Origin: Acidimicrobiia bacterium
Lineage (GTDB): Bacteria > Actinomycetota > Acidimicrobiia > Spongiisociales > UBA5794
NCBI GenBank assembly: GCA_051002015.1
Contig: JBPCMS010000034.1
Location: 1-62,013, forward strand
Length of the DNA stretch: 62,013 bases
Direction of reading: 5' to 3'
Part shown: in pieces, positions 31,847 to 52,621 of the stretch
Layout: the number at the start of each line of letters is the position of its first letter
How positions within the stretch are numbered: position 1 is the first letter of the stretch
Translations under genes and position numbers: made by a program
Notes under the pieces: model-generated
The model's input: the letters and a program-made list of their open reading frames with translations, nothing else
What the model was told of the DNA's origin: nothing
Database searches by the model: none

Positions 31847-31919
31847 AGCGTCGTAGCGCCGCCGCACATGGCAGACTGTGCGTCCCAGCCTGAAGCCCCG
31901 GGACCGCAAGGAGGTGGGG

Positions 31920-32603
31920 ATGCGGGTGCTCGTCGTGGAGGACGAGGACAAGATGCGCGCCGCGCTGCAGCGCGGCTTGCGCGCAGCCGGCTACGCCGTC
32001 GACGGCGTCACCGACGGGGAAGCGGGCCTCGCCAGGGCGGTAGCGGGCGACTACGACGCCCTCGTGCTCGACATCGTGCTGCCCGGTATGGACGGCTTCG
32101 ACGTGTGCCGCGCGTTGCGTCGCGCCGAGGTCTGGACTCCGGTGCTGCTGTTGACCGCGCTCGGGGACGTCGAGGACCGCATCACCGGCCTGGACGCAGG
32201 GGCCGACGACTACCTCACCAAGCCGTTCGCCTTCGAGGAGCTGTTGTCGCGGCTGCGGGCGCTCATCCGCCGTGGCCGCCCGCCACGTCCAACCGCTCTG
32301 GCTTGCGGCCCGCTCACACTGGACCCCGCCACCCGCGTTGTGACCTGGGCGGGGGCGACCATCGACCTGTCCAGCCGTGAGTTCGCGCTGCTCGAGTACC
32401 TCATGCATCATGCCGGTGAGGTCGTCCAGCGCGCCACGATCCGCCGCCATGTCTGGGGCGCCCAGTCCGACGAGGAGTCGTCCAACATCATCGACGCCTA
32501 CGTGAAGAACCTGCGCGACAAGATCGACCGGCGCTTCGACGTCGACGTGATCGAGACGGTTAGGGGCGTCGGCTACCGGCTGCGCCACCAAACCGCCGAG
32601 TGA
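31920..32603 (+). CDS. OmpR/PhoB-family response regulator
   Basis: ATG 31920 after AAGGAGG. The receiver domain is MRVLVVEDEDKM..DALVLDIVLPGMDG..TALG. The winged-helix output is LSSREFALLEYLMHHAGEVV..VRGVGYRL. Confidence 0.9.
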   Translation: MRVLVVEDEDKMRAALQRGLRAAGYAVDGVTDGEAGLARAVAGDYDALVLDIVLPGMDGFDVCRALRRAEVWTPVLLLTALGDVEDRITGLDAGADDYLTKPFAFEELLSRLRALIRRGRPPRPTALACGPLTLDPATRVVTWAGATIDLSSREFALLEYLMHHAGEVVQRATIRRHVWGAQSDEESSNIIDAYVKNLRDKIDRRFDVDVIETVRGVGYRLRHQTAE

Positions 32604-32610
32604 GCTCGTC

Positions 32611-34020
32611 ATGAGCGCATGGCTGCGCGCACTGCCAACCAGCGTGCGCCTCGCCGCCATGACCAGCTTGGCCTTCCTCCTGCTCATGGTGCTGGTGGGC
32701 GCGGTCGTCTACCGCGAGTTCCGCGCCAGTCTGCGCGACACCATCGATCAGGGGCTGGTCGATGTCGCCGTCGTCCAGGCCAGGGCGGTCGAGGGGGCCG
32801 CCAGCGGCACCGGACTCGACGGAGACCTGCTCTCCGACCTGGAACCCGACCCCGACAGTGGCCTGACGCCGAGCGACCTGGAGGCTCAGATCCTGGCGCG
32901 GGACGGCACGGTGCTCCACGCCACGCCGGGCCTGGAGGGGATGGAGGGGCTCGTCGCCGGCGGGCGCCTGGTGCGGGTGGCTGCAGGCGTGCCCGTGTTC
33001 GGCGATGCCGACGTCAATGGCGAGCCACTACGGTTCGTCGGCACCGCGGTGGCCGACGGGTCGGGCCGCATCGTCGCCGTCACCACGCCGATCACCGCCC
33101 TGGCCGACGCCGAGCGCCTACTCCTGGCCGTGTTCGGACCGGTCGCCCTGGCCGGCAGCGCCTTCGCCGGGGTCGCCGGTGCGTGGATCAGCCGCCGCGG
33201 ACTGGCGCCGCTCGTGCGCATGGCCGCGGAGGCGGATGGCATCGGCGCCTACGACCTGTCCCAACGCCTTCCGGTGCCCGCCCGCCGCGACGAGATCCGC
33301 CGGCTCGGATCCACACTCAACCGCATGCTCGAGCGGCTTGAAGCCGCGGTGCAGCGAGAGCGAGACTTTACCTCCGAGGCCAGCCACGAGCTACGCACTC
33401 CCCTGGGCATCCTGCGCGCCGAAGTCGAGTTGGTCCGTGCCGCGGCCGGGGAGCCGGTCGCCCGGGAGGGTCTGGACAGCGCGCTGGAGGAGATCGACCG
33501 CCTAACCGCCGTGGTCGACGACCTGCTGTTGTTGGCCCGCGCCGACGCGGCCGCGGTGCTCGACCGCCGCCAGGTGGTGGACCTCGGCGCGCTGGCATCG
33601 GCGGCGGTTCAGCGGTTCGGCACCGTCGCCACGGCACGCCGCGTGACGCTGACCGCCAGCGGTACGGCCACCATCAGCGGCGACGCCCCGGCCATCGAGC
33701 GAGCGCTGGCCAATCTGCTCGACAACGCGCTGCGGCACACGCCTGCCGGCGGCGCGGTGAGCATCCTCGCCGAGCCCGGCACGCGCGGCGCCATCCTCAT
33801 CGTGCGCGACACCGGGCCGGGTGCGGAGGCGCAGACGCTGGCTACCCTGTTCGATCGCTATACGCGCGCCGCGTCGCGTCCTGGCTCGGCCGGGCTCGGG
33901 CTATCGATCGTCGCTGCCGTAGCCGCTTCCCACGGTGGCGGGGTGCGCGCCCGCAACCTGCCCGAGGGCGGCCTCGAGATAACCGTCGAGCTGGGCGGCG
34001 GCGACAGTGCCTCGGGGTAG
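32611..34020 (+). CDS. Sensor histidine kinase (two TM, HAMP, HisKA, HATPase_c)
   Basis: The H-box is FTSEASHELRTPL, the N-box is NLLDNALRHTP and the G-boxes are RDTGPG .. GSAGLGLSIV. It starts 8 nt after the regulator gene. Confidence 0.9.
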   Translation: MSAWLRALPTSVRLAAMTSLAFLLLMVLVGAVVYREFRASLRDTIDQGLVDVAVVQARAVEGAASGTGLDGDLLSDLEPDPDSGLTPSDLEAQILARDGTVLHATPGLEGMEGLVAGGRLVRVAAGVPVFGDADVNGEPLRFVGTAVADGSGRIVAVTTPITALADAERLLLAVFGPVALAGSAFAGVAGAWISRRGLAPLVRMAAEADGIGAYDLSQRLPVPARRDEIRRLGSTLNRMLERLEAAVQRERDFTSEASHELRTPLGILRAEVELVRAAAGEPVAREGLDSALEEIDRLTAVVDDLLLLARADAAAVLDRRQVVDLGALASAAVQRFGTVATARRVTLTASGTATISGDAPAIERALANLLDNALRHTPAGGAVSILAEPGTRGAILIVRDTGPGAEAQTLATLFDRYTRAASRPGSAGLGLSIVAAVAASHGGGVRARNLPEGGLEITVELGGGDSASG

Positions 34021-34143
34021 CGCCGGTGACCTCGATGGAGGGCGTCGCCGGGTCAGACGCCGAGCTTGCCGCGGGAACGCCTTGTCCATGAAGTATCGCT
34101 GGACTTCCGGGTCGGACTGGTCGCGGCGGGCACCCGTCGAGGA

Positions 34144-35613
34144 TCAGCGCACTGGATGCCTGGCCACCATCTGGTTGAACCGGGCGATGAGCCGGTCGAT
34201 GGGCTCCACCTGCGCTTGGATCGACGTCCAGTAGTCGGGGTCGTGCCATTGGGCGTTTAGCTCGGCGGCGGTCTTGCCCTGCTGCTCCACCCAGGTGTAG
34301 TACTTCAGGTTGTGGATGCGCTTGCGGTCCCAGTAGCCCAGCTCGCGGACGTGGTCGGTGGCCACTCCCAGCAGGTGGCGGTGGAAGGCGGCGGCGGCTG
34401 CCACGGTGGTGAGGGCACCCCGCTGCTCGGTCAACTCGGCCAGCCGGCTGCGGTACATCTCCACCGAGTCGGTGGCCACGGTGACCAGCACGTCACGCCC
34501 GGTCATCTCGTGGTGCTTGGACACCTTGACGGCGGCCAGCAGGTTGCCCACCGCCGAGATGCCGAGCAGGGGGAGCTGCTCCACCAACTCGGGCTTCACT
34601 CCGTGGTCGACCAGGTAGGCCCTGCCGGCGGGCTCGTTGAACACCCGCAGCAGGGACACGGTGGCCTCGTCGTCGACCCCCACGGCGATGTCGGTGTTGG
34701 CCACGTCGTGCACCCAGGGGATGTGCTTGTCGCCGATCCCCTCGATACGGTGCTCACCGTATCCGTTGTAGAGCATGGTGGGGCACTGCACGGCCTCGGC
34801 GGCGGCGATCAGTGAGGTGGGATAGCGTTGCTTGAGGTAGTCGCCGGAGGCGATGGTCCCCGCCGACCCGGTGGTCAGCGCCACTCCCCGGTATCGCTCG
34901 CCGGGGCGGAGCGCCGCCTCGATGGCCTCCTCCATGGCGGGACCGGTGACGGCGTGGTGCCACAGATAGTTCCCGAACTCGTCGAACTGGTTGAAGATCA
35001 CCAGGTCCTCGCCGGAGCGGCGTAGTTCCCAGCACTTGTCGAAGATCTCCTTGACGTTCGACTCGGTGCCGGGGGTCCTGATGATCTCCCCGGCGACCGA
35101 CTCCAGCCATTCGAACCGCTCCCGGCTCATTCCCTCGGGGAGGATGGCGATCGACTCACAGCCGAGCAGGTGGGAGTCGTAGGCGCCGCCCCGGCAGTAG
35201 TTGCCGGTGGAGGGCCACACCGCCTTCTGGGTGGCCGGGTCGAACTGCCCGGTGACCAGCCGCGGCACCAGGCACCCGAAGGCGGCCCCCACCTTGTGGG
35301 CCCCGGTGGGGAACCACTCGCCGATCAGCATCAGGATGCGGGTGGGGACCCCGGTCAGCTCCGGGGGCAACTCGAGCACGTTGACCGGTCCGAAGCCGCC
35401 CCCGTGCTCGACCGGTTCGTTGTGCCAGGTGATGCGGAACAGGTTGCGGGGGTGGAGGTCCCACAGCCCGACGTCGCCCAGCCCTGCGGCGATGTGGTCC
35501 GGCATCAGGCTCGGATCACGCATCTGGGCGAAGGTGGGGATCACGATGGACCGCTCCCGCGCCCGCTCCACCGCAGACTCCAGCGCCGCCTCGTCGATGG
35601 TGAGATCGATCAT
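34144..35613 (-). CDS. Fold-type II (TrpB/cysteine-synthase-like) PLP-dependent enzyme, unknown specificity
   Basis: True start is ATG 35611-35613 (MIDLTIDEAAL), overlapping the upstream stop as ATGA. The candidate PLP-Lys is in WFPTGAHKVGAAFG. At 489 aa it is larger than CysK/CysM. The ORF-track extension to 36090 is read-through. Confidence 0.75.
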   Translation of the reverse strand: MIDLTIDEAALESAVERARERSIVIPTFAQMRDPSLMPDHIAAGLGDVGLWDLHPRNLFRITWHNEPVEHGGGFGPVNVLELPPELTGVPTRILMLIGEWFPTGAHKVGAAFGCLVPRLVTGQFDPATQKAVWPSTGNYCRGGAYDSHLLGCESIAILPEGMSRERFEWLESVAGEIIRTPGTESNVKEIFDKCWELRRSGEDLVIFNQFDEFGNYLWHHAVTGPAMEEAIEAALRPGERYRGVALTTGSAGTIASGDYLKQRYPTSLIAAAEAVQCPTMLYNGYGEHRIEGIGDKHIPWVHDVANTDIAVGVDDEATVSLLRVFNEPAGRAYLVDHGVKPELVEQLPLLGISAVGNLLAAVKVSKHHEMTGRDVLVTVATDSVEMYRSRLAELTEQRGALTTVAAAAAFHRHLLGVATDHVRELGYWDRKRIHNLKYYTWVEQQGKTAAELNAQWHDPDYWTSIQAQVEPIDRLIARFNQMVARHPVR

Positions 35614-36875
35614 CCGTCCTCCTCCAGCGCCTGTTCGAGGGCCCCCAGGTCGGGCTCGATGACGATCGGGTGCGACCCGGCAGCGGCCACCGCGCGCCGC
35701 ACCGAGGCGATGTCCTTGAGCCCGCTGCCGGTGGACAGTACGGCCACGGTGGCGCCGGCGCCCAGCAGTCCGTCGGCAACCGCCCGCTTCACCCCGGCCC
35801 ACGCGGCGGCGGCGGCGGGCTCGGCGAACACCCCGCATCCGCGGGCCAGCACGGGGATGGCGGCGAGGATGGCGTCGTCGTCGACCCGGACGAAGGCGCC
35901 ACCGGTGGTGCGCACCGCCCGCATCGCCTTCACCCGATCGCGGGGCAGATCGGCGGAGATCGAGTCGGCGACGGTGTCCGCCGCGATCGCCTGCTTGGTG
36001 GCAACGTCCTCGCCCGACTCGAACGCCTGCACCAGGTAGTCGCTCCCCGCCGCCTGGGCTCCGAACAATCGGGGGATCCGGTCGATCCACCCCAGCCGGT
36101 CGAGCTCGACCAGCCCCTTGTGCAGCCCGCCGATGATCGATCCGTCACCGACGGCGGTGAACACGGCGTCGGGCATCGACCAGGAGAGCTGCTCGGCCAG
36201 CTCCAGCGCCGCCGTCTTCTTGCCCTCGGTGGTGTACGGGTTGATCCCGGTGTTGCGGTCGTACCAGCCGTAGTGCTCCACCGCCCGCTCGGAAAGATCG
36301 AAGGCGGCGGCGTAGTTGCCCCGCACCAGCACGACGGTGGCTCCGTAGGCGAGGAGCTGGGCCACCTTGGCCTCGGGCGCCGTCTCGGGGACGAAGATCA
36401 CGCTGCGCAGGTCCATGCTGGCGGTGACGCCGGCCAGGGCGGCGGCGGCGTTGCCGGTGCTGGCGGTGGTGATCACCTCAGCCCCGAAGCCGGCGCCGAT
36501 CACCGCCGCCATCGCCGAGGCCCGGTCCTTGAGCGAGGCGGTGGGTTGGCGGCCCTCGTCCTTCACCACCACCCTGGCGACCCCGGCCCGCTCCGCCAGC
36601 CGGGGCGCCTCGTACAGCGGGGTGCCGCCGATGGCAAGCGGTGGGAGCGCCGCTCCAGCGGCGACCGGGAGCATCCGCCGCCACCGCCACATGGTGGGGT
36701 CGGGATCGGCCGCCAGGACATGGCGACCCCACCCGTCGGTCACCCGATCCCAGTCGTACTCGACGTCGAGGGTCCCCGGCGGGCCGCAGCGGTCGCACAC
36801 GTAACGGTCGACGGCCGGCTGGTATGCGGCGGCGCACAGGACGCAGCGCAGCCCGGTGACCGCCGGCGAGATCAC
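35610..36875 (-). CDS. Threonine-synthase-like PLP-dependent enzyme with N-terminal zinc ribbon
   Basis: The zinc ribbon is CVLCAAAYQPAVDRYVCDRCG. The PLP-Lys motif is QPTASLKDRAS, followed by TASTGNAAAALAG. There is a 4-nt overlap with the carbamate kinase gene. Confidence 0.8.
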   Translation of the reverse strand: MISPAVTGLRCVLCAAAYQPAVDRYVCDRCGPPGTLDVEYDWDRVTDGWGRHVLAADPDPTMWRWRRMLPVAAGAALPPLAIGGTPLYEAPRLAERAGVARVVVKDEGRQPTASLKDRASAMAAVIGAGFGAEVITTASTGNAAAALAGVTASMDLRSVIFVPETAPEAKVAQLLAYGATVVLVRGNYAAAFDLSERAVEHYGWYDRNTGINPYTTEGKKTAALELAEQLSWSMPDAVFTAVGDGSIIGGLHKGLVELDRLGWIDRIPRLFGAQAAGSDYLVQAFESGEDVATKQAIAADTVADSISADLPRDRVKAMRAVRTTGGAFVRVDDDAILAAIPVLARGCGVFAEPAAAAAWAGVKRAVADGLLGAGATVAVLSTGSGLKDIASVRRAVAAAGSHPIVIEPDLGALEQALEEDG

Positions 36876-37810
36876 GGCACGATCCGGGTGCCGGTGTTAC
36901 CGACGACCGCCTCTCCGATGTGGCTGGGGTCGGTGATGATCACCAGCCCGCCCCCGCCCTCGAGGAACGATATCGCCGCCTCGATCTTCGGGGCCATCGA
37001 TCCTTTGGCGAAGTGGATTCCCTCGGCCAGGTATGCCCTGGCCTCCGCCAGGGAGATCTCGTCGAGGTCGATCTGCTCGGGCGTCCCGTAGTACAGCGCC
37101 ACCCTCTCGACCCCGGTGGAGATGAGCAGGAGATCGGCGCCAAGGGAGACTCCGAGCAGGGCGGCGGCGCGGTCCTTGTCGATGACGGCGGCCACCCCGC
37201 GTAGGTCGCCGTTGGGCTGGCGGACCACCGGAATCCCACCCCCGCCCACGCCGATCACGGTGGCGCCGGAGTCGAGCAGGGCGGCGATGGTTTCCAGCTC
37301 GACGATCCGCTGCGGCTCGGGCGAGGCCACCAGCCGGCGCCAGCCCCGCCCGGCGTCCTCGGCCACGTCCCATCCCTCGGTGCGCCGCTCCTCGGCCTTG
37401 GCGGCATCCATGAATGACCCGATCGGCTTGGACGGGTTCTGGAAGGCTGGATCGTCGGCGGCCACCTCGACCTGGGTGACGATGGTCACCACTCGTTTGG
37501 GCACATCCATCCGGCGCAGGTCGTTCTGCAGGTTCTGCTGCAGGGCGTAGCCGATCGCCCCCTGGGTGTCGGCTCCGCAGGCGTCGAGCGGTACTTCGTG
37601 CAGCTCGTGGGCGGCCAGCTCGGAGCGGCGCAGGATGAACCCCACCTGGGGCCCGTTGCCGTGCACGATCACGATGTCCCAGCCGTCCCGGATAAGCGGG
37701 GCGATGTGGTCGGTCGTCTCCGACGCCGCCTCGTACTGGTCCTCCACGCTCTGATGGGCCGAGTCCTTGATCAGCGAGTTGCCCCCGATGGCGACGACTG
37801 CCCTGGGCAC
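36872..37810 (-). CDS. arcC: Carbamate kinase
   Basis: 312 aa. Has MPRAVVAIGGNSL, IVHGNGPQVG, GGGGIPV and a typical C-terminal GTRIV. Confidence 0.9.
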   Translation of the reverse strand: MPRAVVAIGGNSLIKDSAHQSVEDQYEAASETTDHIAPLIRDGWDIVIVHGNGPQVGFILRRSELAAHELHEVPLDACGADTQGAIGYALQQNLQNDLRRMDVPKRVVTIVTQVEVAADDPAFQNPSKPIGSFMDAAKAEERRTEGWDVAEDAGRGWRRLVASPEPQRIVELETIAALLDSGATVIGVGGGGIPVVRQPNGDLRGVAAVIDKDRAAALLGVSLGADLLLISTGVERVALYYGTPEQIDLDEISLAEARAYLAEGIHFAKGSMAPKIEAAISFLEGGGGLVIITDPSHIGEAVVGNTGTRIVP

Positions 37811-37812
37811 GG

Positions 37813-38763
37813 CTACTCCGTCGCCCCGAGGACCAGGGCCAGCAGCGCCATCCGCATCACCACGCCGTAGTACGCCTCCTGCCAGTAGCGGGCGTGGCGG
37901 GTGGCGTCGACGTCGGGGGGTAGCTCGTCCATCCGGGGCAGCGAGTGCAGGATGATGCTGTCCCGCTTCGCCTTGGTCAGCAGCTCCCGGGTGACCCGGT
38001 AGTTGGCCGGGGTCGTCGCCCTGTCGCCGGTGTCCTCGACCCGGGACTGGGTGTAGTCGGCCTGGACCACCGGCTCCATGTAGATGATGTCGGCCTCGGC
38101 GATGACCTGGTCGACGTGCTCGGCCCGGCGGGGGTGCAGGTTGCCATCGGACAGCTCGGCGAGGAACTCGTCGGTGACCCGCATCTCGTCGGGGGAGATG
38201 AACACCAGGTCGACGTCGAACCGGGTGAGGGCGTAGCCCAACGAGTGCATGGTCCGCATCCGCCCGTCGCCGATGGCGACAAAGGTGCGGCCGTCGATCC
38301 CGCCGTGTTCCCTGGTCACCGTGTACAGGTCGGTGAGCACCTGGGTGGGGTGCTCACCCCAGCCGTCGCCGGCGTTGATCACCGGGATGCTGGCCCACTT
38401 CGCCGCCTCGTGGGGGGCACCCTGTTCGAAGTGGCGCATCACGATGACGTCGCCGTAGTACTCCAGCATGTGGACGGTGTCCTTGATCGACTCCTGGTAG
38501 AAGTCGCCTGCCCTGGTCATCTTGGGATCGGCGAACCCGAGGACGTGGCCGCCGAGCCGGTGCATCGCCGCCTCGTGCGCCAGCCGGGTGCGGGTCGAGG
38601 GCTGGTAGAAGGCGGTGAGCAGCGTCTTGTGGGCGAGCAGGTCCGTGTTGCGCCGCTCCCGGGCGATCGGCTCCAGCCGGTCGCACACCGAGAAGATGTG
38701 CTCCAACTCGGCGCGCTCGAAGTCCTTCAGCGACAGGATGTCGCGCCCGGCGAAGCTCCGCAT
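37813..38763 (-). CDS. Aspartate-carbamoyltransferase-like transcarbamylase, probably non-aspartate specificity
   Basis: ATG 38761-38763 (MRSFAGRDILSL). The carbamoyl-phosphate motifs STRTR and HPTQ and the PyrB-type HSLPR are present. The PyrB aspartate-binding motif (YMTRVQKER in E. coli) reads YMEPVVQAD here. Confidence 0.8.
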   Translation of the reverse strand: MRSFAGRDILSLKDFERAELEHIFSVCDRLEPIARERRNTDLLAHKTLLTAFYQPSTRTRLAHEAAMHRLGGHVLGFADPKMTRAGDFYQESIKDTVHMLEYYGDVIVMRHFEQGAPHEAAKWASIPVINAGDGWGEHPTQVLTDLYTVTREHGGIDGRTFVAIGDGRMRTMHSLGYALTRFDVDLVFISPDEMRVTDEFLAELSDGNLHPRRAEHVDQVIAEADIIYMEPVVQADYTQSRVEDTGDRATTPANYRVTRELLTKAKRDSIILHSLPRMDELPPDVDATRHARYWQEAYYGVVMRMALLALVLGATE

Positions 38764-38861
38764 CGAAGTCTCCTGATCGGGTCCGTTCGGGCACAGTCTG
38801 CCCACCCAGACGACGCAAGGCAGACTGTAGGTTCGTCACCCCCCGCTGCGGGCTGGACCGT

Positions 38862-40571
38862 GTGCGGCGGCGGTCGCCGATCGGGGATACTGCGTGGTCA
38901 ACTCCGCCGGTACCCTCGGGAGTGCCCTTGCCAACGACACCTGCACCGGCCGTGATCAGGGGCGCCTCCGTGCTCGACGGGACCGGGGCCGACATGGTGG
39001 TGTCCGACGTCCGGTTCGATGCCGCCGGGCTGATCACCGAGATCGAACCCTCGATCACCCCGACCGAATCCGAGACCGTGACCGACGGTCACGGCCTGGT
39101 GCTGGCCCCGGGGTTCGTCGATATGCACTCGCACTCCGACCTGTACACCATGGTGCCCGGCGACGGCGGGGCGCCCATCGGGGACGAGCCCAAGCTCCTC
39201 CAGGGATGCACCACCCAGGTGTTCGGTCAGGACGGGATCTCGGCGGCGCCGGTGCACGGCCACGACCTCGATGACTTCAGGCGGTTCCTGGCGGGGCTCG
39301 ACGGGGTGATCGACCGGGACCGGTGGACCTGGAGCAGCTTCGGCGAGTACCTGGCGGCGCTGCGGCGAGGCTCTACCACCCGGGCCGCCGGGTTGGTGGG
39401 GCACGCCACGGTGCGCCGCTACGTGATGGGGATGGCCAACCGGCCACCCACCGCAGACGAGCTGATCGAGATGCGGGCGGTGGTCGCCGACGCCCTCGAC
39501 CAGGGGGCGGCCGGGTTCTCCACCGGGCTGGTGTACGTCCCCGCCGCCTTCGCCACCACCGCCGAGGTGACCGCCCTGTGTGAGGTGGCGGCGAGCAGGG
39601 GCAAGCCGTTCTTCGTCCACGTCCGCTCCGAGTCCGAGCACGTGGTCGAGGCCACCGCCGAGGTGATCGAGGTCGCCGCCCGCTCCGGGGTCCATCTCCA
39701 CTACAGCCACATCAAGACGGCGGGGGAGCGCAACTGGGGCAAGGCGCCGGTGATGCTCGACCAGCTAGCCGCCGCCTCCTCGTCGGGGGTGCGGATCACC
39801 GCCGACATCCACCCGTACATCGCCGGGTCGTCGACGGCGATCGTGCTGCTCCCCCCGTGGCTGCAGGACGGGACCATGGCCGATATCGCCACCAGGCTGG
39901 CCGACCCGGCGGTGCGGGAGCGGGTCCGCCGTCAGATGCTCCAAGACGTCGACACCTGGGACAACTGGTACGACTTCTCCGGCGGCTGGGAGGGGCTGCG
40001 GGTGGCCGGCGCCAGCCGCGGCGAGCTGGTGGGGTCGTCCTTCGCCGACCTCATCCGGCGGGACGGGGTCGATGACACCGTGTCGCCGGCGGGCTTCGAC
40101 GTGGTGTTCGACCTGCTCGCCTCCGAGGCGTTTGGGGTGACGCTGATCTCGTTCAACAACGTCGAGGAGAACGTCTCCCGCTTCTTCGCCCAGCCGTACA
40201 CCTCGGTGGGTTCGGACGGGGTGGTCAACCCGGGAGGGCTGCCCCATCCCCGCCTGTACGGCACCTTCACTCGGGTCCTTGGCCGTCTGGTGCGCCACCA
40301 GGGTGTGGTGTCGCTCCCCGAGGCGGTGCGCAAGATGACCTCGCAGGCGGCGGACATCGTCGGGTTGGGCGATCGTCTCGGCCGGGTCGCCGTCGGTCGG
40401 GCCGCCGACCTGGTGCTGTTCGACCCGGAGCGGGTGATCGACCACGCCACATACGAGAGCCCCCGCCAACCCGGAGAGGGTGTCACTGCGGTGTGGGTGG
40501 GCGGCCGCCAGGTTGCCGCCGATGGCCGCACCCTCCCCGACATCCCCCCGGCCGAACCCGACCACGCGTGA
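38862..40571 (+). CDS. D-aminoacylase / N-acyl-D-amino-acid deacylase family amidohydrolase
   Basis: Has IRGASVLDGTG, the metal motif GFVDMHSHSD, HYSHIKTAG and a C-terminal ADLVLFDPERV. The start is uncertain: GTG 38862, or in-frame GTG 38922/38952. Confidence 0.8.
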   Translation: MRRRSPIGDTAWSTPPVPSGVPLPTTPAPAVIRGASVLDGTGADMVVSDVRFDAAGLITEIEPSITPTESETVTDGHGLVLAPGFVDMHSHSDLYTMVPGDGGAPIGDEPKLLQGCTTQVFGQDGISAAPVHGHDLDDFRRFLAGLDGVIDRDRWTWSSFGEYLAALRRGSTTRAAGLVGHATVRRYVMGMANRPPTADELIEMRAVVADALDQGAAGFSTGLVYVPAAFATTAEVTALCEVAASRGKPFFVHVRSESEHVVEATAEVIEVAARSGVHLHYSHIKTAGERNWGKAPVMLDQLAAASSSGVRITADIHPYIAGSSTAIVLLPPWLQDGTMADIATRLADPAVRERVRRQMLQDVDTWDNWYDFSGGWEGLRVAGASRGELVGSSFADLIRRDGVDDTVSPAGFDVVFDLLASEAFGVTLISFNNVEENVSRFFAQPYTSVGSDGVVNPGGLPHPRLYGTFTRVLGRLVRHQGVVSLPEAVRKMTSQAADIVGLGDRLGRVAVGRAADLVLFDPERVIDHATYESPRQPGEGVTAVWVGGRQVAADGRTLPDIPPAEPDHA

Positions 40572-40583
40572 TGAGGTGTGTCT

Positions 40584-40595
40584 GCATCATGATGC
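40584..40595. promoter_or_regulatory. 12-bp perfect palindrome upstream of vapB (candidate autoregulatory operator)
   Basis: GCATCATGATGC is nested in the inverted repeat TCTGCATC...GATGCAGA (40581-40616). It lies in a locally AT-richer segment, immediately 5' of ATG 40617. Confidence 0.4.
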
Positions 40596-40616
40596 ATGCT
40601 ACACTACGATGCAGAG

Positions 40617-40844
40617 ATGCGAACCACGATCGATCTGCCCGATGACCTCCATCGGATCGCCCGCGCCATCGCCAACGACTCGCAGCGGACCATGAGCGAG
40701 ACCGTCAGCATGCTGATGCGCCGAGGACTGGGGGAGACCGGTCCGGCGCATGTCGGCCACGATCCCGAGACCGACCTGCCGGTGGTGCATCTTGGCGCGG
40801 TCGTCACCTCCACCGACGTCGCCGCCCTGGACGATGACCGGTGA
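40617..40844 (+). CDS. vapB: Type II antitoxin, VapB-like (MRTTIDLPDDL class)
   Basis: The N-terminus is MRTTIDLPDDLHRIARAIANDSQRTMSETVSMLMRRGL. The stop overlaps the vapC start by 4 nt. Confidence 0.7.
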   Translation: MRTTIDLPDDLHRIARAIANDSQRTMSETVSMLMRRGLGETGPAHVGHDPETDLPVVHLGAVVTSTDVAALDDDR

Positions 40845-50409: not shown

Positions 50410-50482
50410 CCGAGACTCGCCACAGCCTCCCCGCTGATCAAGGCTCGGCCTGGCTCAAAGGGTCGCCGTTAGGCTGCCCGCC

Positions 50483-51244
50483 ATGTTGCTCAACGGGATG
50501 TCGGCCATCGTCACCGGCGGCGCCTCCGGGCTTGGGGCCGCCACCGCCCGCCGTCTCGCCACCGACGGCGCCAAGGTGGTCCTGGTCGATCTGCAGGTGG
50601 AGGCCGGTGAGGCCACCGCCGCCGAGATCGGCGGCGTCTACGTCCACGCCGACGTCACCGACCCCGACCAGGTGCGGGCGGCGGTCGTCGCCGCCGTGGA
50701 GATGGGACCGCTGCGGGCGCTGGTCAACTGCGCCGGCATCGGCACCGCCGCCAAGACGGTCGACCGGGAGGGCAACCCCCACGACCTCGCCCAGTTCACC
50801 AGGGTGGTGTCGATCAACCTGATCGGCAGCTTCAACTGCATCAGGCTGGCGGCGGCGGCGATGACCCGCAACGAACCCGACCCCGCCGGGGAGCGGGGCG
50901 CCATCGTCAACACCGCCTCGGTGGCCGCCTTCGACGGGCAGGTGGGCCAGGCCGCCTACTCGGCGTCCAAGGGTGGGGTGGTGGCGATGACGCTGCCCAT
51001 CGCCCGCGACCTGGCGCAGAGCGGCATCAGGGTCAACACCATCGCCCCCGGGATCATGGACACCCCGATGTTGGCCGGTCTCCCCGAAGCGGCCCGGGAG
51101 TCGCTCGGACACCAGGTGCTCAACCCGCCGCGCCTGGGCACCCCCGACGAGTTCGCCGCCCTCGTTCACTTCCTGCTCACCCACGGATACATGAACGCGG
51201 AGACGGTGCGGATGGATGGCGGCATCCGCATGGCGCCCCGCTAG
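50483..51244 (+). CDS. SDR-family oxidoreductase (3-hydroxyacyl-CoA dehydrogenase type-2-like)
   Basis: Has TGGASGLG, NCAGIG and YSASKGGV (the YxxxK catalytic motif). Confidence 0.9.
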   Translation: MLLNGMSAIVTGGASGLGAATARRLATDGAKVVLVDLQVEAGEATAAEIGGVYVHADVTDPDQVRAAVVAAVEMGPLRALVNCAGIGTAAKTVDREGNPHDLAQFTRVVSINLIGSFNCIRLAAAAMTRNEPDPAGERGAIVNTASVAAFDGQVGQAAYSASKGGVVAMTLPIARDLAQSGIRVNTIAPGIMDTPMLAGLPEAARESLGHQVLNPPRLGTPDEFAALVHFLLTHGYMNAETVRMDGGIRMAPR

Positions 51245-51253
51245 CGACCCGCC

Positions 51254-52621
51254 GTGCCCAGCCTGCTCGTCCGCAACGCCACCGTGCTGGTGACGATGGA
51301 CGACGACCGGAGCGAGATCCCCGGGGGTGGGCTCTACGCCGAGGAGGGGCGCATCGTCGCCGTCGGGCCCACCGACCGGCTGCCGGTGACCGCAGACGAG
51401 GTGGTCGATCTCACCGGCCGTCTCGTGCTCCCCGGGCTAATCAACACCCACCATCACCTCTACCAGACGCTGACCAGGGCGGTGCCCGGAGCCCAGGACG
51501 CCGGGTTGTTCGACTGGCTCCGCACCCTGTACCCGATGTGGGGACGGATGCGACCCGAGCACATCACGGTGTCCGCCACCGTGGGTCTGGCCGAGCTGGC
51601 TCTGTCCGGGTGCACCACCGCCTTCGACCACCTGTACCTGTTCCCCAACGGGAGCCGGCTCGACGACGAGTTCGAGGGTGCCGAAGCGGTGGGGATCCGG
51701 CTGGTGGCCTCGCGGGGGTCGATGAGCCTGGGGGAGAGCAAGGGCGGGCTGCCCCCCGACCACCTGGTCGAGGACGAGGACGCCATCCTCGAGGACTGCC
51801 TGCGGGTGATCGACCGATTCCACGACCCTGCCCCGGGGGCGATGACCCAGGTGGTGGTGGCCCCGTGCTCGCCGTTCTCGGTCACCGTCGACCTGATGCG
51901 CTCCGCCGCCGAGCTGGCCCGAGAACGGGGCGTGCGGCTCCACACCCACCTGGCCGAGACCATGGACGAGGAGGACTTCTGTGTGGAGCGGTTCGGGCGG
52001 CGCCCGATGGAGCTGATGGCGGACGTCGGCTGGCTCGGCGACGACGTCTGGTACGCCCACGCCGTGTACGCCGACGACGCCGACATCTCCGCCATGGCGG
52101 CGAGCGGGACCGGGGTGGCCCACTGCCCCACCTCGAACATGCGGCTCGCCTCCGGGATCGCCCCCATCCGCCGTTACCTGGCGGCCGGGGTGCCGGTGGG
52201 GCTCGGGGTGGACGGGTCGGCCAGCAACGACGGGTCGCATCTGCTGGCCGAGGCCCGCCAGGCGATGCTGCTGGGCCGGCTCGCCGCCTCCCCCAGCCTC
52301 GAGGGCGGCCCGCTGCTCACCGCCCGCACCGCCCTCGAGCTGGCCACCAGGGGCGGCGCCGCCGTTCTGGGCCGGACCGACATCGGGGTGCTCGAACCGG
52401 GCCGGTGCGCCGACCTGGTCGCCATCTCGCTCGACCAGGTCGGGTTTGCCGGGGCGATGCACGACCCGGTGGCCGCCGCCGTGCTCTGCGCCCCATCCGG
52501 GGTGGATGTGTCGATCGTGGGTGGACGGGTGGTGGTCGACCAGGGCCGTCTGGTCGGGCTCGAGCTCGAACCGGTCATCGAGCGTCACAACCGCCTCGCC
52601 GCCGAGCTGGTGAACGGATGA
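51254..52621 (+). CDS. Amidohydrolase, 8-oxoguanine deaminase / SsnA-like
   Basis: GTG start. Has LPGLINTHHHLYQTLTR, HLAET, HCPTSNMRL and LGVDGSASND. Confidence 0.85.
   Translation: MPSLLVRNATVLVTMDDDRSEIPGGGLYAEEGRIVAVGPTDRLPVTADEVVDLTGRLVLPGLINTHHHLYQTLTRAVPGAQDAGLFDWLRTLYPMWGRMRPEHITVSATVGLAELALSGCTTAFDHLYLFPNGSRLDDEFEGAEAVGIRLVASRGSMSLGESKGGLPPDHLVEDEDAILEDCLRVIDRFHDPAPGAMTQVVVAPCSPFSVTVDLMRSAAELARERGVRLHTHLAETMDEEDFCVERFGRRPMELMADVGWLGDDVWYAHAVYADDADISAMAASGTGVAHCPTSNMRLASGIAPIRRYLAAGVPVGLGVDGSASNDGSHLLAEARQAMLLGRLAASPSLEGGPLLTARTALELATRGGAAVLGRTDIGVLEPGRCADLVAISLDQVGFAGAMHDPVAAAVLCAPSGVDVSIVGGRVVVDQGRLVGLELEPVIERHNRLAAELVNG

Follow-up and report, generated by a model that had tools for sequence, protein, structure and literature searches.

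A reductive uric-acid/2,8-dioxopurine pathway was resolved in gut bacteria in 2025, in which XdhD converts urate to 2,8-dioxopurine, YgfK together with SsnA leads to ureidomethylhydantoin, HyuA gives 2,3-diureidopropionate, YgeW or UacY and then YgeY remove both ureido groups to leave 2,3-diaminopropionate, and YgeX forms pyruvate (PMC12507026; bioRxiv 10.1101/2025.04.24.650524). According to published biochemistry, YgeW and YqeA obtain ATP from 2,3-diureidopropionate, and in C. difficile a D-aminoacylase homologue of the PF07969 family, UacY (Q181U6), replaces YgeW plus YqeA (PMC12507026). Li et al. reported SsnA in Actinomycetota and Chloroflexota and coloured gene neighbourhoods by PF00185 and PF00291 only, a scheme in which the enzymes considered here are not distinguished. 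Here we analyse a 62,013-nt stretch of DNA from an Acidimicrobiia bacterium (GCA_051002015.1, contig JBPCMS010000034.1, positions 1-62,013 of the forward strand; hereafter the window), in which four coupled genes encode a transcarbamylase (TCA), a carbamate kinase (CK) and two pyridoxal phosphate (PLP)-dependent enzymes (PLPt and PLPc), with a divergent gene for an amidohydrolase (Amh3) beside them.

In our reading, this operon probably encodes the last steps, those that conserve energy, of a variant reductive uric-acid pathway. A first reading of the same DNA, made from the letters alone (the sequence-only reading), had ended with the statement that the genes could not be assigned to a known pathway; their wider genomic context now makes them assignable to the one described in 2025 (PMC12507026; bioRxiv 10.1101/2025.04.24.650524).

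The window has a G+C content of about 70% and belongs to a genome of 2.35 Mb that is 94% complete (G000). Pfam and NCBIfam profile searches of its open reading frames (ORFs) found all five genes where they had first been drawn. Four lie on the minus strand, namely TCA (37813-38763; 316 aa, OTCace_N plus OTCace), CK (36872-37810; 312 aa, above the NF009007 cut-off), PLPt (35610-36875; 421 aa, a ThrC-like PALP protein with an N-terminal Cys cluster) and PLPc (34144-35613; 489 aa, a CysK/CBS-like PALP protein). Amh3 diverges from them on the plus strand (38862-40571; PF07969, Amidohydro_3, up to 569 aa, start uncertain). The tight coupling of the four genes stands with one correction on direct reading: PLPt and PLPc share an ATGA overlap at 35613-35610, and the CK start lies 2 nt past the TCA stop (TAG-cc-GTG at 37815-37808, gap 37812-37811), whereas the CK/PLPt overlap at 36875-36872 is GTGA and not ATGA as first reported. 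The TCA ORF is open to a GTG at 38805, and its start is almost certainly the ATG at 38763 (Met15 of the ORF), because a GGAGA lies 6 nt upstream and the resulting length agrees with the 316-317 aa of all relatives.

The family to which we assign TCA had already been flagged as "pseudo-ATCase" in 2013 (PMC4016543). In that study, Barba et al. defined pseudo-ATCases, relatives of aspartate carbamoyltransferase (ATCase), at the base of the ATC II clade; A1SH59 of Nocardioides sp. JS614 was the sole member of its subgroup ("subgroup 2"), was encoded beside a ygeW homologue, xdhABC and hyuA, and was assigned no function (PMC4016543). No later characterization of this subgroup was found in the literature that we searched. 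TCA and A1SH59 share the signature blocks QPSTRTR, GDGWGEHPTQVLTDLYT, IYMEPVVQADYT and HSLPRMDEL (A1SH59 row of the supplementary alignment of PMC4016543), and these blocks place TCA in the A1SH59-type family. For its position we rely on the tree of Barba et al., as a small transcarbamylase tree of our own, in which one wrong-frame ORF (B_L011) was included, left TCA unresolved relative to two PyrBs.

Within this family, the residue changes observed in TCA bear directly on what it can bind. When 80 family members were aligned to E. coli PyrB (PyrB numbering), the carbamoyl-phosphate ligands S52, T53, R54, T55, R105, H134, Q137, L267, P268 and R269 were invariant, as were R167 and T168, and all sequences carried the HPxQ-type and HxLP motifs, the latter as HSLP where PyrB has HPLP; STRTR, HPTQ and HSLPR, picked out by the sequence-only reading, are present in the window protein. 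In ATCase, R229, Q231 and Lys84 are ligands of aspartate, and R167 binds the alpha-carboxylate. Fold, carbamoyl-phosphate site and R167 are thus common to TCA and PyrB, but TCA has the fixed changes E50Q, S80R, R229P (80/80) and P266S, Q231V in 76/80, an 80s loop that is two residues longer and aligns a Tyr with Lys84 (K84Y), and an 8-residue insert, QADYTxSR, after position 231. Conserved acidic residues have been gained near the site (E228 and the D of QAD). Alignments to PDB structures and to E. coli PyrB agree that YMEPVVQAD stands in place of YMTRVQKER, with R229 and Q231 lost and eight residues inserted, and the early suspicion that aspartate is an unlikely substrate is borne out, a check for the aspartate-binding residues having found them absent.

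These changes leave little room for the view, implicit in database names, that TCA is simply a second, divergent ATCase. That view can point to a TIGR00670 (PyrB model) score of 256 bits against a cut-off of 236.95, to P. abyssi ATCase (1ml4) as the closest PDB match, and to public records in which relatives are named "aspartate carbamoyltransferase (catalytic subunit)", yet we find it hardly credible. The replacement of R229, Q231 and Lys84 is universal among the 80 members, TCA is coupled to carbamate kinase with no pyrI, pyrC or carAB context, and a genuine pyrB (314 bits) lies on another contig (C55) with a dihydroorotase homologue (pyrC) directly after it, so that the situation in which the genome would have no other pyrB does not arise. 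Because the aspartate ligands are replaced throughout the family and a separate pyrB-pyrC pair exists, we judge that TCA is neither PyrB nor an aspartate enzyme and that the PyrB naming of its family is a systematic misannotation, one that annotation pipelines will keep repeating, as TIGR00670 scores TCA above its cut-off. A third transcarbamylase, on contig C117, groups with E. coli ArgI in our tree (support 100/96).

CK scores 382 bits with NF009007 (cut-off 266) and 348 bits with TIGR00746, just under the cut-off of 358, and is 48% identical to E. coli YqeA. The sequence-only reading had seen in the pairing of a transcarbamylase with a carbamate kinase the hallmark of ATP-yielding catabolism, and our results support this view, with a ureido amino acid as the compound broken down. 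The only pseudo-ATCase with a measured activity is Rxyl_2847 of Rubrobacter xylanophilus, of another subgroup, which catalyses phosphate-dependent cleavage of allantoate (PMC4016543) and likewise adjoins a carbamate kinase. TCA could be a ureidoglycine carbamoyltransferase of the same kind, acting on allantoate and phosphate in an oxidative route, with the PLP enzymes handling glycine- or serine-type products. We regard this as very unlikely, for Rxyl_2847 has different motifs and an allantoinase/uricase context, whereas TCA neighbourhoods hold SsnA, YgfK and XdhD and not uricase or allantoinase; moreover, uricase and OHCU decarboxylase were not found in the 94%-complete host genome, nor was any allantoinase above cut-off, and the absence of these enzymes disfavours the allantoate route.

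To place the operon in context, we searched the 80 best TCA loci, which come from Acidimicrobiia, Nitriliruptoria, Anaerolineae and others, for three sets of proteins: those encoded in the window, those of uricolysis in E. coli, and representatives of the neighbours found to be conserved. Carbamate kinase stands beside TCA in 66/80, PLPt is present in 52/80 and PLPc in 43/80, and a second transcarbamylase (TCB) lies beside TCA in 69/80. Purine genes are the other recurrent companions: a xanthine dehydrogenase (XDH)-family molybdenum subunit in 31/80 loci, an 8-oxoguanine deaminase (NF006055, 673 bits) in 23/80, an SsnA-like protein in 15/80, adenine deaminase in 13/80, YgfK (TIGR03315, 896 bits) in 12/80 and HyuA in 2/80, so that 55/80 loci carry at least one gene of the set XDH/XdhD, SsnA, YgfK, 8-oxoguanine deaminase, adenine deaminase and HyuA. 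A GntR/UTRA regulator (49/80) and a Bmp-type ATP-binding cassette (ABC) binding protein (16/80) complete the picture. The check on neighbourhood conservation that had been proposed earlier thus found strong conservation across related loci, and because the arrangement recurs in dozens of species, the grouping is not due to chance.

TCB is 33-38% identical to E. coli YgeW and forms a clade with it (support 99/96), and the two share the second-substrate-site residues Q80, H84, S167, V168, S/A229, W230 and G231. Upstream of TCB, in loci such as L022, L033, L040, L047, L053, L055 and L062 among others, we observed a class I/II aminotransferase (11/80 loci) and a 2-hydroxyacid dehydrogenase of the glyoxylate/hydroxypyruvate-reductase type (8/80), neighbours that hint at a further fate for the three-carbon product.

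TCA is 76-91% identical among the best 120 protein clusters listed and is carried by at least 583 GTDB species genomes, from Acidimicrobiia, Nitriliruptoria and Anaerolineae/Chloroflexota as well as some Verrucomicrobiota, Acidobacteriota, Spirochaetota and others. Within the window's phylum, however many relatives lack it: just 7 of the 301 genomes sampled have it, and it did not turn up in any sampled member of the same family, order or class as the window. Such high similarity between phyla (72-79% identity) with so patchy a distribution suggests that the whole module has spread horizontally and recently.

The purine context is observed in the related loci; in the host genome itself the candidate upstream genes are scattered. 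On contig C18, the gene for an XdhD-like Fe-S/Mo protein precedes that for a short SsnA-like amidohydrolase, and adenosine deaminase, a second XDH and an ABC system of the Bmp type are encoded nearby; contig C45 carries a HyuA-like hydantoinase that is 40% identical to E. coli HyuA. The XdhD-like/SsnA-like pair occupies about 25.3-29.0 kb of C18 (L088:11365-14966); its two long ORFs, which are in different frames, have several hundred bases in common in this assembly. The short SsnA-like gene matches only positions ~55-340 of the 441-position SsnA model, and the same short form is seen as ~340-aa ORFs in 15 related loci and in ~16/301 sampled genomes. Searches of the host genome (tblastn, E. 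coli queries including YgeX and YgeY) did not find YgeX, YgeY, YgeW/TCB or YgfK, and the YgeX model NF006058 had no match in it.

Closer to the operon, 11 kb away in the window, lies an 8-oxoguanine-deaminase-type amidohydrolase (51245-52621, plus strand) that is 67% identical to the NF006055 homologue adjoining TCA in 23/80 loci; it is likely to be a feeder enzyme of the same purine route, its membership in the module being tentative. Directly upstream of it is a short-chain dehydrogenase gene (SDR; the two together at 50438-52621, plus strand), and an SDR also stands divergently next to PLPc in L096. Possibly the SDR stands in for the missing YgfK-type reductase.

This scattered arrangement is also where a purine-independent function has to be weighed. 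The module could degrade some other carbamoyl or ureido amino acid (N-carbamoyl-D-amino acids, the plant compound albizziin or a citrulline analogue) that is imported or arises from hydantoin or pyrimidine breakdown. The physical separation of the operon from SsnA/XdhD and the pyrimidine-like context of the HyuA-like gene on C45 speak for it, as does the nature of the sole conserved local partner, a protein of the D-aminoacylase type, whose family is known to act on N-acyl- and N-carbamoyl-D-amino acids; a genome of the window's own family (G133) moreover keeps the PLP pair with a CN_hydrolase protein and no TCA or CK. We nonetheless think such a function unlikely, since purine-specific genes adjoin the module in the 55 loci counted above, SsnA-like genes occur in all sampled TCA and PLPc genomes, and the window shows no dedicated amino-acid transporter in coupling with the operon.

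The two PLP enzymes are the least familiar part of the module. PLPc was described early on as a 489-aa fold-type II enzyme of CysK-like character, and this agrees with our results: it scores 49 bits with PALP, has weak CysK/CBS matches and a weak SbnA-family match (E 1e-6), and its AlphaFold model (pLDDT 85) shows a CBS/CysK-type core with helical N- and C-terminal extensions. Foldseek returned CBS/CysK cores as top matches (target TM ~0.8, ~20% identity) and no informative match for the extensions, and a look-up in the ESM Atlas gave only generic "PLP-dependent enzyme" clusters. PLPt had been called a zinc-ribbon threonine-synthase-like protein; the ThrC-like PALP assignment holds (PALP 222 bits; TIGR00260, the ThrC model, 163-164 bits, below its cut-off of 167.1), but the ribbon is partial, with three invariant Cys only, C11, C14 and C27 (19-sequence alignment A2). 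A genuine thrC (215 bits) lies on contig C38, and PLPt reads NPYTTEGKKT, with Thr for the Arg of the ThrC block NPxR(I/L)EGQKT, an Arg that we take to bind the substrate phosphate in ThrC. The PLP lysine K116 and the STGN loop of PLPt are invariant in A2 and likewise in a 49-sequence family alignment, and K107, the STGN loop and the GSAGT loop of PLPc are invariant in the 19-sequence alignment A1 and in a 42-sequence family alignment. Since both proteins keep the PLP lysine and the carboxylate- and phosphate-binding loops, both are presumably catalytic. A complex prediction for PLPc (A1) and PLPt (A2) scored 0.00 in both runs, to which we attach no weight either way.

By family, neither protein is a YgeX, as PLPt reaches 50 bits with NF006058 (cut-off 276) and PLPc has no match. 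By position and distribution, both behave like one. In the Nitriliruptorales loci L023 and L028, YgeX lies between the 8-oxoguanine deaminase and XDH genes, and in the otherwise syntenic L024, L034 and L081 PLPc-PLPt occupies exactly that position. Of the 301 genomes sampled from the window's phylum, 34 had YgeX, 18 had PLPc and 7 had a PLPt-like gene (an unpublished genome among the seven is left aside), with no genome combining YgeX with either PLP gene (0/301); the sampled genomes are mutually related, and these counts describe a pattern rather than a statistical test. None of our conclusions depends on the unpublished genomes G120 and G088. An SsnA-like match (E <= 1e-60) accompanies PLPc in 18/18 genomes, compared with ~45/301 overall. 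All seven TCA genomes have such a match, in every case below the curated SsnA cut-off and in six within ~10 kb of TCA; five of the seven carry PLPc and two carry YgeX, never both. Two genomes with a full-scoring SsnA and no YgeX (G028 and G207) carry a PLPt-like gene, which in G028 adjoins an SsnA paralogue. On this basis, we propose that PLPt and PLPc together stand in for YgeX, being alike in predicted function and not in family.

Relatives without TCA were also informative. Of the four such loci with flanks examined, three (L096, L098 and L099) have a second PALP gene beside PLPc, which in L096 and L099 is barely similar to PLPt; in L097 the adjacent gene was outside the scan, and L100 had no callable genes. 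L098, from G133, keeps PLPt-PLPc (60% and 71% identity) with no TCA or CK, and nearby it encodes a carbon-nitrogen hydrolase, a third PALP protein and an ABC component of the Bmp type. The carbon-nitrogen hydrolase family includes N-carbamoyl-amino-acid amidohydrolases, and L098 looks like an all-hydrolytic version of the module.

A second exchange appears to involve TCB. This gene is absent from 11/80 loci, five of which have too little flanking sequence on the side in question for a verdict. Among the six that can be judged, Amh3 is present in two (L008 and L075), YgeY lies directly upstream of TCA in three (L051, L057 and L082), and L061 has neither; the 69 loci that carry TCB include none with Amh3 and two with YgeY (L079 and L083). 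Amh3 has its best PDB matches in D-aminoacylase (1m7j, 218 bits) and N-acyl-D-Glu deacylase (3gip/3giq; 197 bits for 3gip), and it keeps the equivalents of HxH, H220, H250-x-K and Asp366, with Asp at the Cys96 equivalent; from the D-aminoacylase literature, we take these positions to be metal and carboxylate ligands. A position upstream of TCA is seen for it in three loci only, those of the window, L008 and L075, all without TCB; as no other loci are closer to any of the three (86-91% TCA identity among them), the exchange of TCB for Amh3 was probably a single evolutionary event. In L075 (7027-8683), the alignment of the Amh3 homologue falls into two pieces that overlap and differ in frame, possibly through a frameshift or a long-read indel error. 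The swap would parallel that of YgeW for UacY in C. difficile, UacY being, like Amh3, a member of PF07969. The suggestion that the PLP enzymes and the amidohydrolase serve one route is supported; the amidohydrolase is confined to the closest relatives and does not belong to the widespread core.

Together, these findings lead us to propose a scheme in which the substrates, their stereochemistry, the order of steps and the sharing of work between the two PLP enzymes are predicted. The XdhD-like and SsnA-like proteins of C18, the HyuA-like protein of C45 and the 8-oxoguanine-deaminase homologue would convert purines to 2,3-diureidopropionate, from which Amh3 would hydrolyse off one ureido group, as UacY does. 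TCA would then remove the other by phosphorolysis, giving 2,3-diaminopropionate and carbamoyl phosphate; CK would use the carbamoyl phosphate and ADP to form ATP, NH3 and CO2, and PLPt and PLPc would jointly do the job of YgeX, turning diaminopropionate into pyruvate and two NH3. The substrate that the sequence-only reading could describe only as an unidentified ureido amino acid is thus most likely 2,3-diureidopropionate or its mono-ureido product. In relatives that have TCA, TCB and CK, both ureido groups could possibly yield ATP, two per urate, while the window would gain only one.

As the target of TCA, we favour the 2-ureido (N-alpha-carbamoyl) group of a substrate whose beta substituent would be neutral or positively charged, because R167 is kept, the beta-carboxylate ligands are replaced and acidic residues have been gained. 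Going further, we suggest tentatively, and with rather less confidence than the pathway assignment itself, that TCA is a 2,3-diaminopropionate N-carbamoyltransferase run in the catabolic direction, that the ThrC-like and CysK/CBS-like pair constitutes a new two-enzyme route for diaminopropionate or ureido-alanine distinct from YgeX, and that the whole represents a horizontally spread, more energy-conserving environmental branch of the pathway. The two-enzyme route might possibly take the form of a division of labour between D- and L-specific enzymes, or of a beta-replacement followed by deamination.

Several observations weigh against the assignment to the reductive uric-acid pathway and against details of the scheme. 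The roles of TCA, PLPt, PLPc and Amh3 are all predicted, the operon and SsnA/XdhD lie on different contigs, and no YgfK-type reductase was found in the host genome. The HyuA-like gene has an ambiguous context (aldehyde dehydrogenase, flavin mononucleotide reductase and a major facilitator superfamily transporter) that would fit pyrimidine catabolism equally well. Two PLP enzymes are present where a single YgeX suffices, and PLPt-like genes or PLPc also occur each alone (L061, L070, L084 and L087; f30 genomes). The exclusivity counts overstate independence, as the sampled genomes are related, and the Amh3 link comes from three closely related genomes and is effectively one event. Nor are two ureido-cleaving enzymes per cluster a strict rule, since YgeY occurs together with TCA and TCB in L079 and L083. 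Finally, the regiochemistry of TCA is uncertain, because the two published pathway studies disagree on which ureido group YgeW removes; our choice of the 2-ureido group conflicts with Li et al., in whose account UacY-type enzymes also take that group.

The direction of the route deserves separate comment, as transcarbamylase equilibria favour carbamoylation. One could therefore picture a biosynthetic cluster in which CK supplies carbamoyl phosphate, the PLP enzymes make diaminopropionate in the manner of SbnA or CysK, and TCA carbamoylates it to an albizziin-type secondary metabolite or osmolyte; CysK-family enzymes do make diaminopropionate precursors of siderophores and antibiotics, PLPc has the weak SbnA match given above, and a DAB-type CO2 pump and a SulP carrier are encoded next door. 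This is highly improbable in our view. No nonribosomal peptide synthetase, ligase or export genes are associated with the operon, the genes that accompany it in the various phyla encode enzymes of purine catabolism, nucleoside ABC importers and GntR/UTRA regulators, and its distribution is complementary to that of the catabolic lyase YgeX. Synthesis of a ureido amino acid, which the sequence-only reading had left open beside degradation, is unlikely given these catabolic purine neighbours. The DAB/SulP locus adjoins the module in the window, and we considered a functional tie through carbamate formed from CO2 and NH3; we rejected it because that adjacency does not recur across the 80 related loci.

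Regulation of the module may be local. The genes for a response regulator of the OmpR type and a HAMP histidine kinase (31857-34020, plus strand) stop 124 bp short of the PLPc 3' end. In L004 and L005 (77% TCA identity), the PLPc homologue also has a response regulator downstream of it, followed in L005 by a histidine kinase. The pair may regulate the module, instead of or besides the neighbouring DAB-like locus. The divergent region between TCA and Amh3 (38764-38861), which we read directly and which includes the TCA ribosome-binding site, is part of a stretch in which two 10-bp arms, ACAGTCTGCC / GGCAGACTGT (38793-38802 and 38819-38828), form a perfect inverted repeat around a 16-nt spacer. 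The left arm falls just within the upstream end of the ORF that opens at GTG 38805, upstream of ATG 38763, and the right arm is intergenic. The TCA-proximal arm, GGCAGACTG, is kept in L008 and L075 and was not found upstream of TCA across the wider family. We therefore rejected it as a conserved operator, and it is more likely a lineage-specific promoter element, given its absence upstream of TCA in the wider family. A promoter and terminator scan of 33900-40800 found nothing.

If our assignment is right, the module suggests that Actinomycetota, Chloroflexota and others in soil, sediment and groundwater run a version of the reductive pathway with different end enzymes. It also offers a candidate function for a pseudo-ATCase family that has been an orphan since 2013 and is still called aspartate carbamoyltransferase in databases, and it points to two large uncharacterized PLP families as potential replacements of diaminopropionate ammonia-lyase. 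ATCase-type and YgeW-type enzymes are often encoded next to each other, and what each of them accepts could decide the question of which ureido group goes first. Moreover, alternative enzymes that yield ATP or act irreversibly may be of interest for the engineering of uricolytic probiotics.

Compared with the modules of E. coli (YgeW, YqeA, YgeY and YgeX) and C. difficile (UacY, YgeY and YgeX), the operon shares the coupling of a carbamoyltransferase to carbamate kinase, which the UacY route does not have, and, by our predictions, a second ureido-cleaving enzyme and a final fold-type II PLP step; with C. difficile it shares a hydrolase of the D-aminoacylase family, and related loci have the same upstream enzymes (XdhD/XDH, YgfK, SsnA and HyuA). 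It differs in that the carbamoyltransferase is ATCase-like and not of the YgeW type, that two unrelated PALP enzymes are present in place of YgeX with no M20 peptidase YgeY, and that the upstream genes lie on other contigs, with YgfK not found in the genome. Most relatives have two transcarbamylases, whereas the window has one.

Arginine and agmatine deiminase pathways, in which ornithine or putrescine transcarbamylase works with carbamate kinase, resemble the proposed route in the phosphorolysis of a ureido group followed by substrate-level phosphorylation, but differ in transcarbamylase clade, substrate and companions, and the window operon includes no deiminase or antiporter. Rxyl_2847 is similar in that it is a catabolic transcarbamylase of purine degradation that derives from ATCase and is encoded beside a carbamate kinase (PMC4016543). 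Its substrate is a small acid with two ureido groups, of which it removes one, as TCA would do by our proposal; it differs in subgroup and motifs, and it serves the oxidative route of uricase and allantoinase with allantoate as its substrate. The closest known relative remains A1SH59 (PMC4016543), with which TCA shares the signature blocks and, in most related loci, the context of a ygeW homologue, xdh and hyuA-type genes. In contrast to A1SH59, the window has no adjacent ygeW homologue or xdh, its XDH genes being on C18, and a D-aminoacylase homologue is present instead. Barba et al. knew a single member of this family and proposed no substrate for it; the family now extends to at least 583 GTDB species genomes, for which 2,3-diureidopropionate or its mono-ureido product is our candidate.

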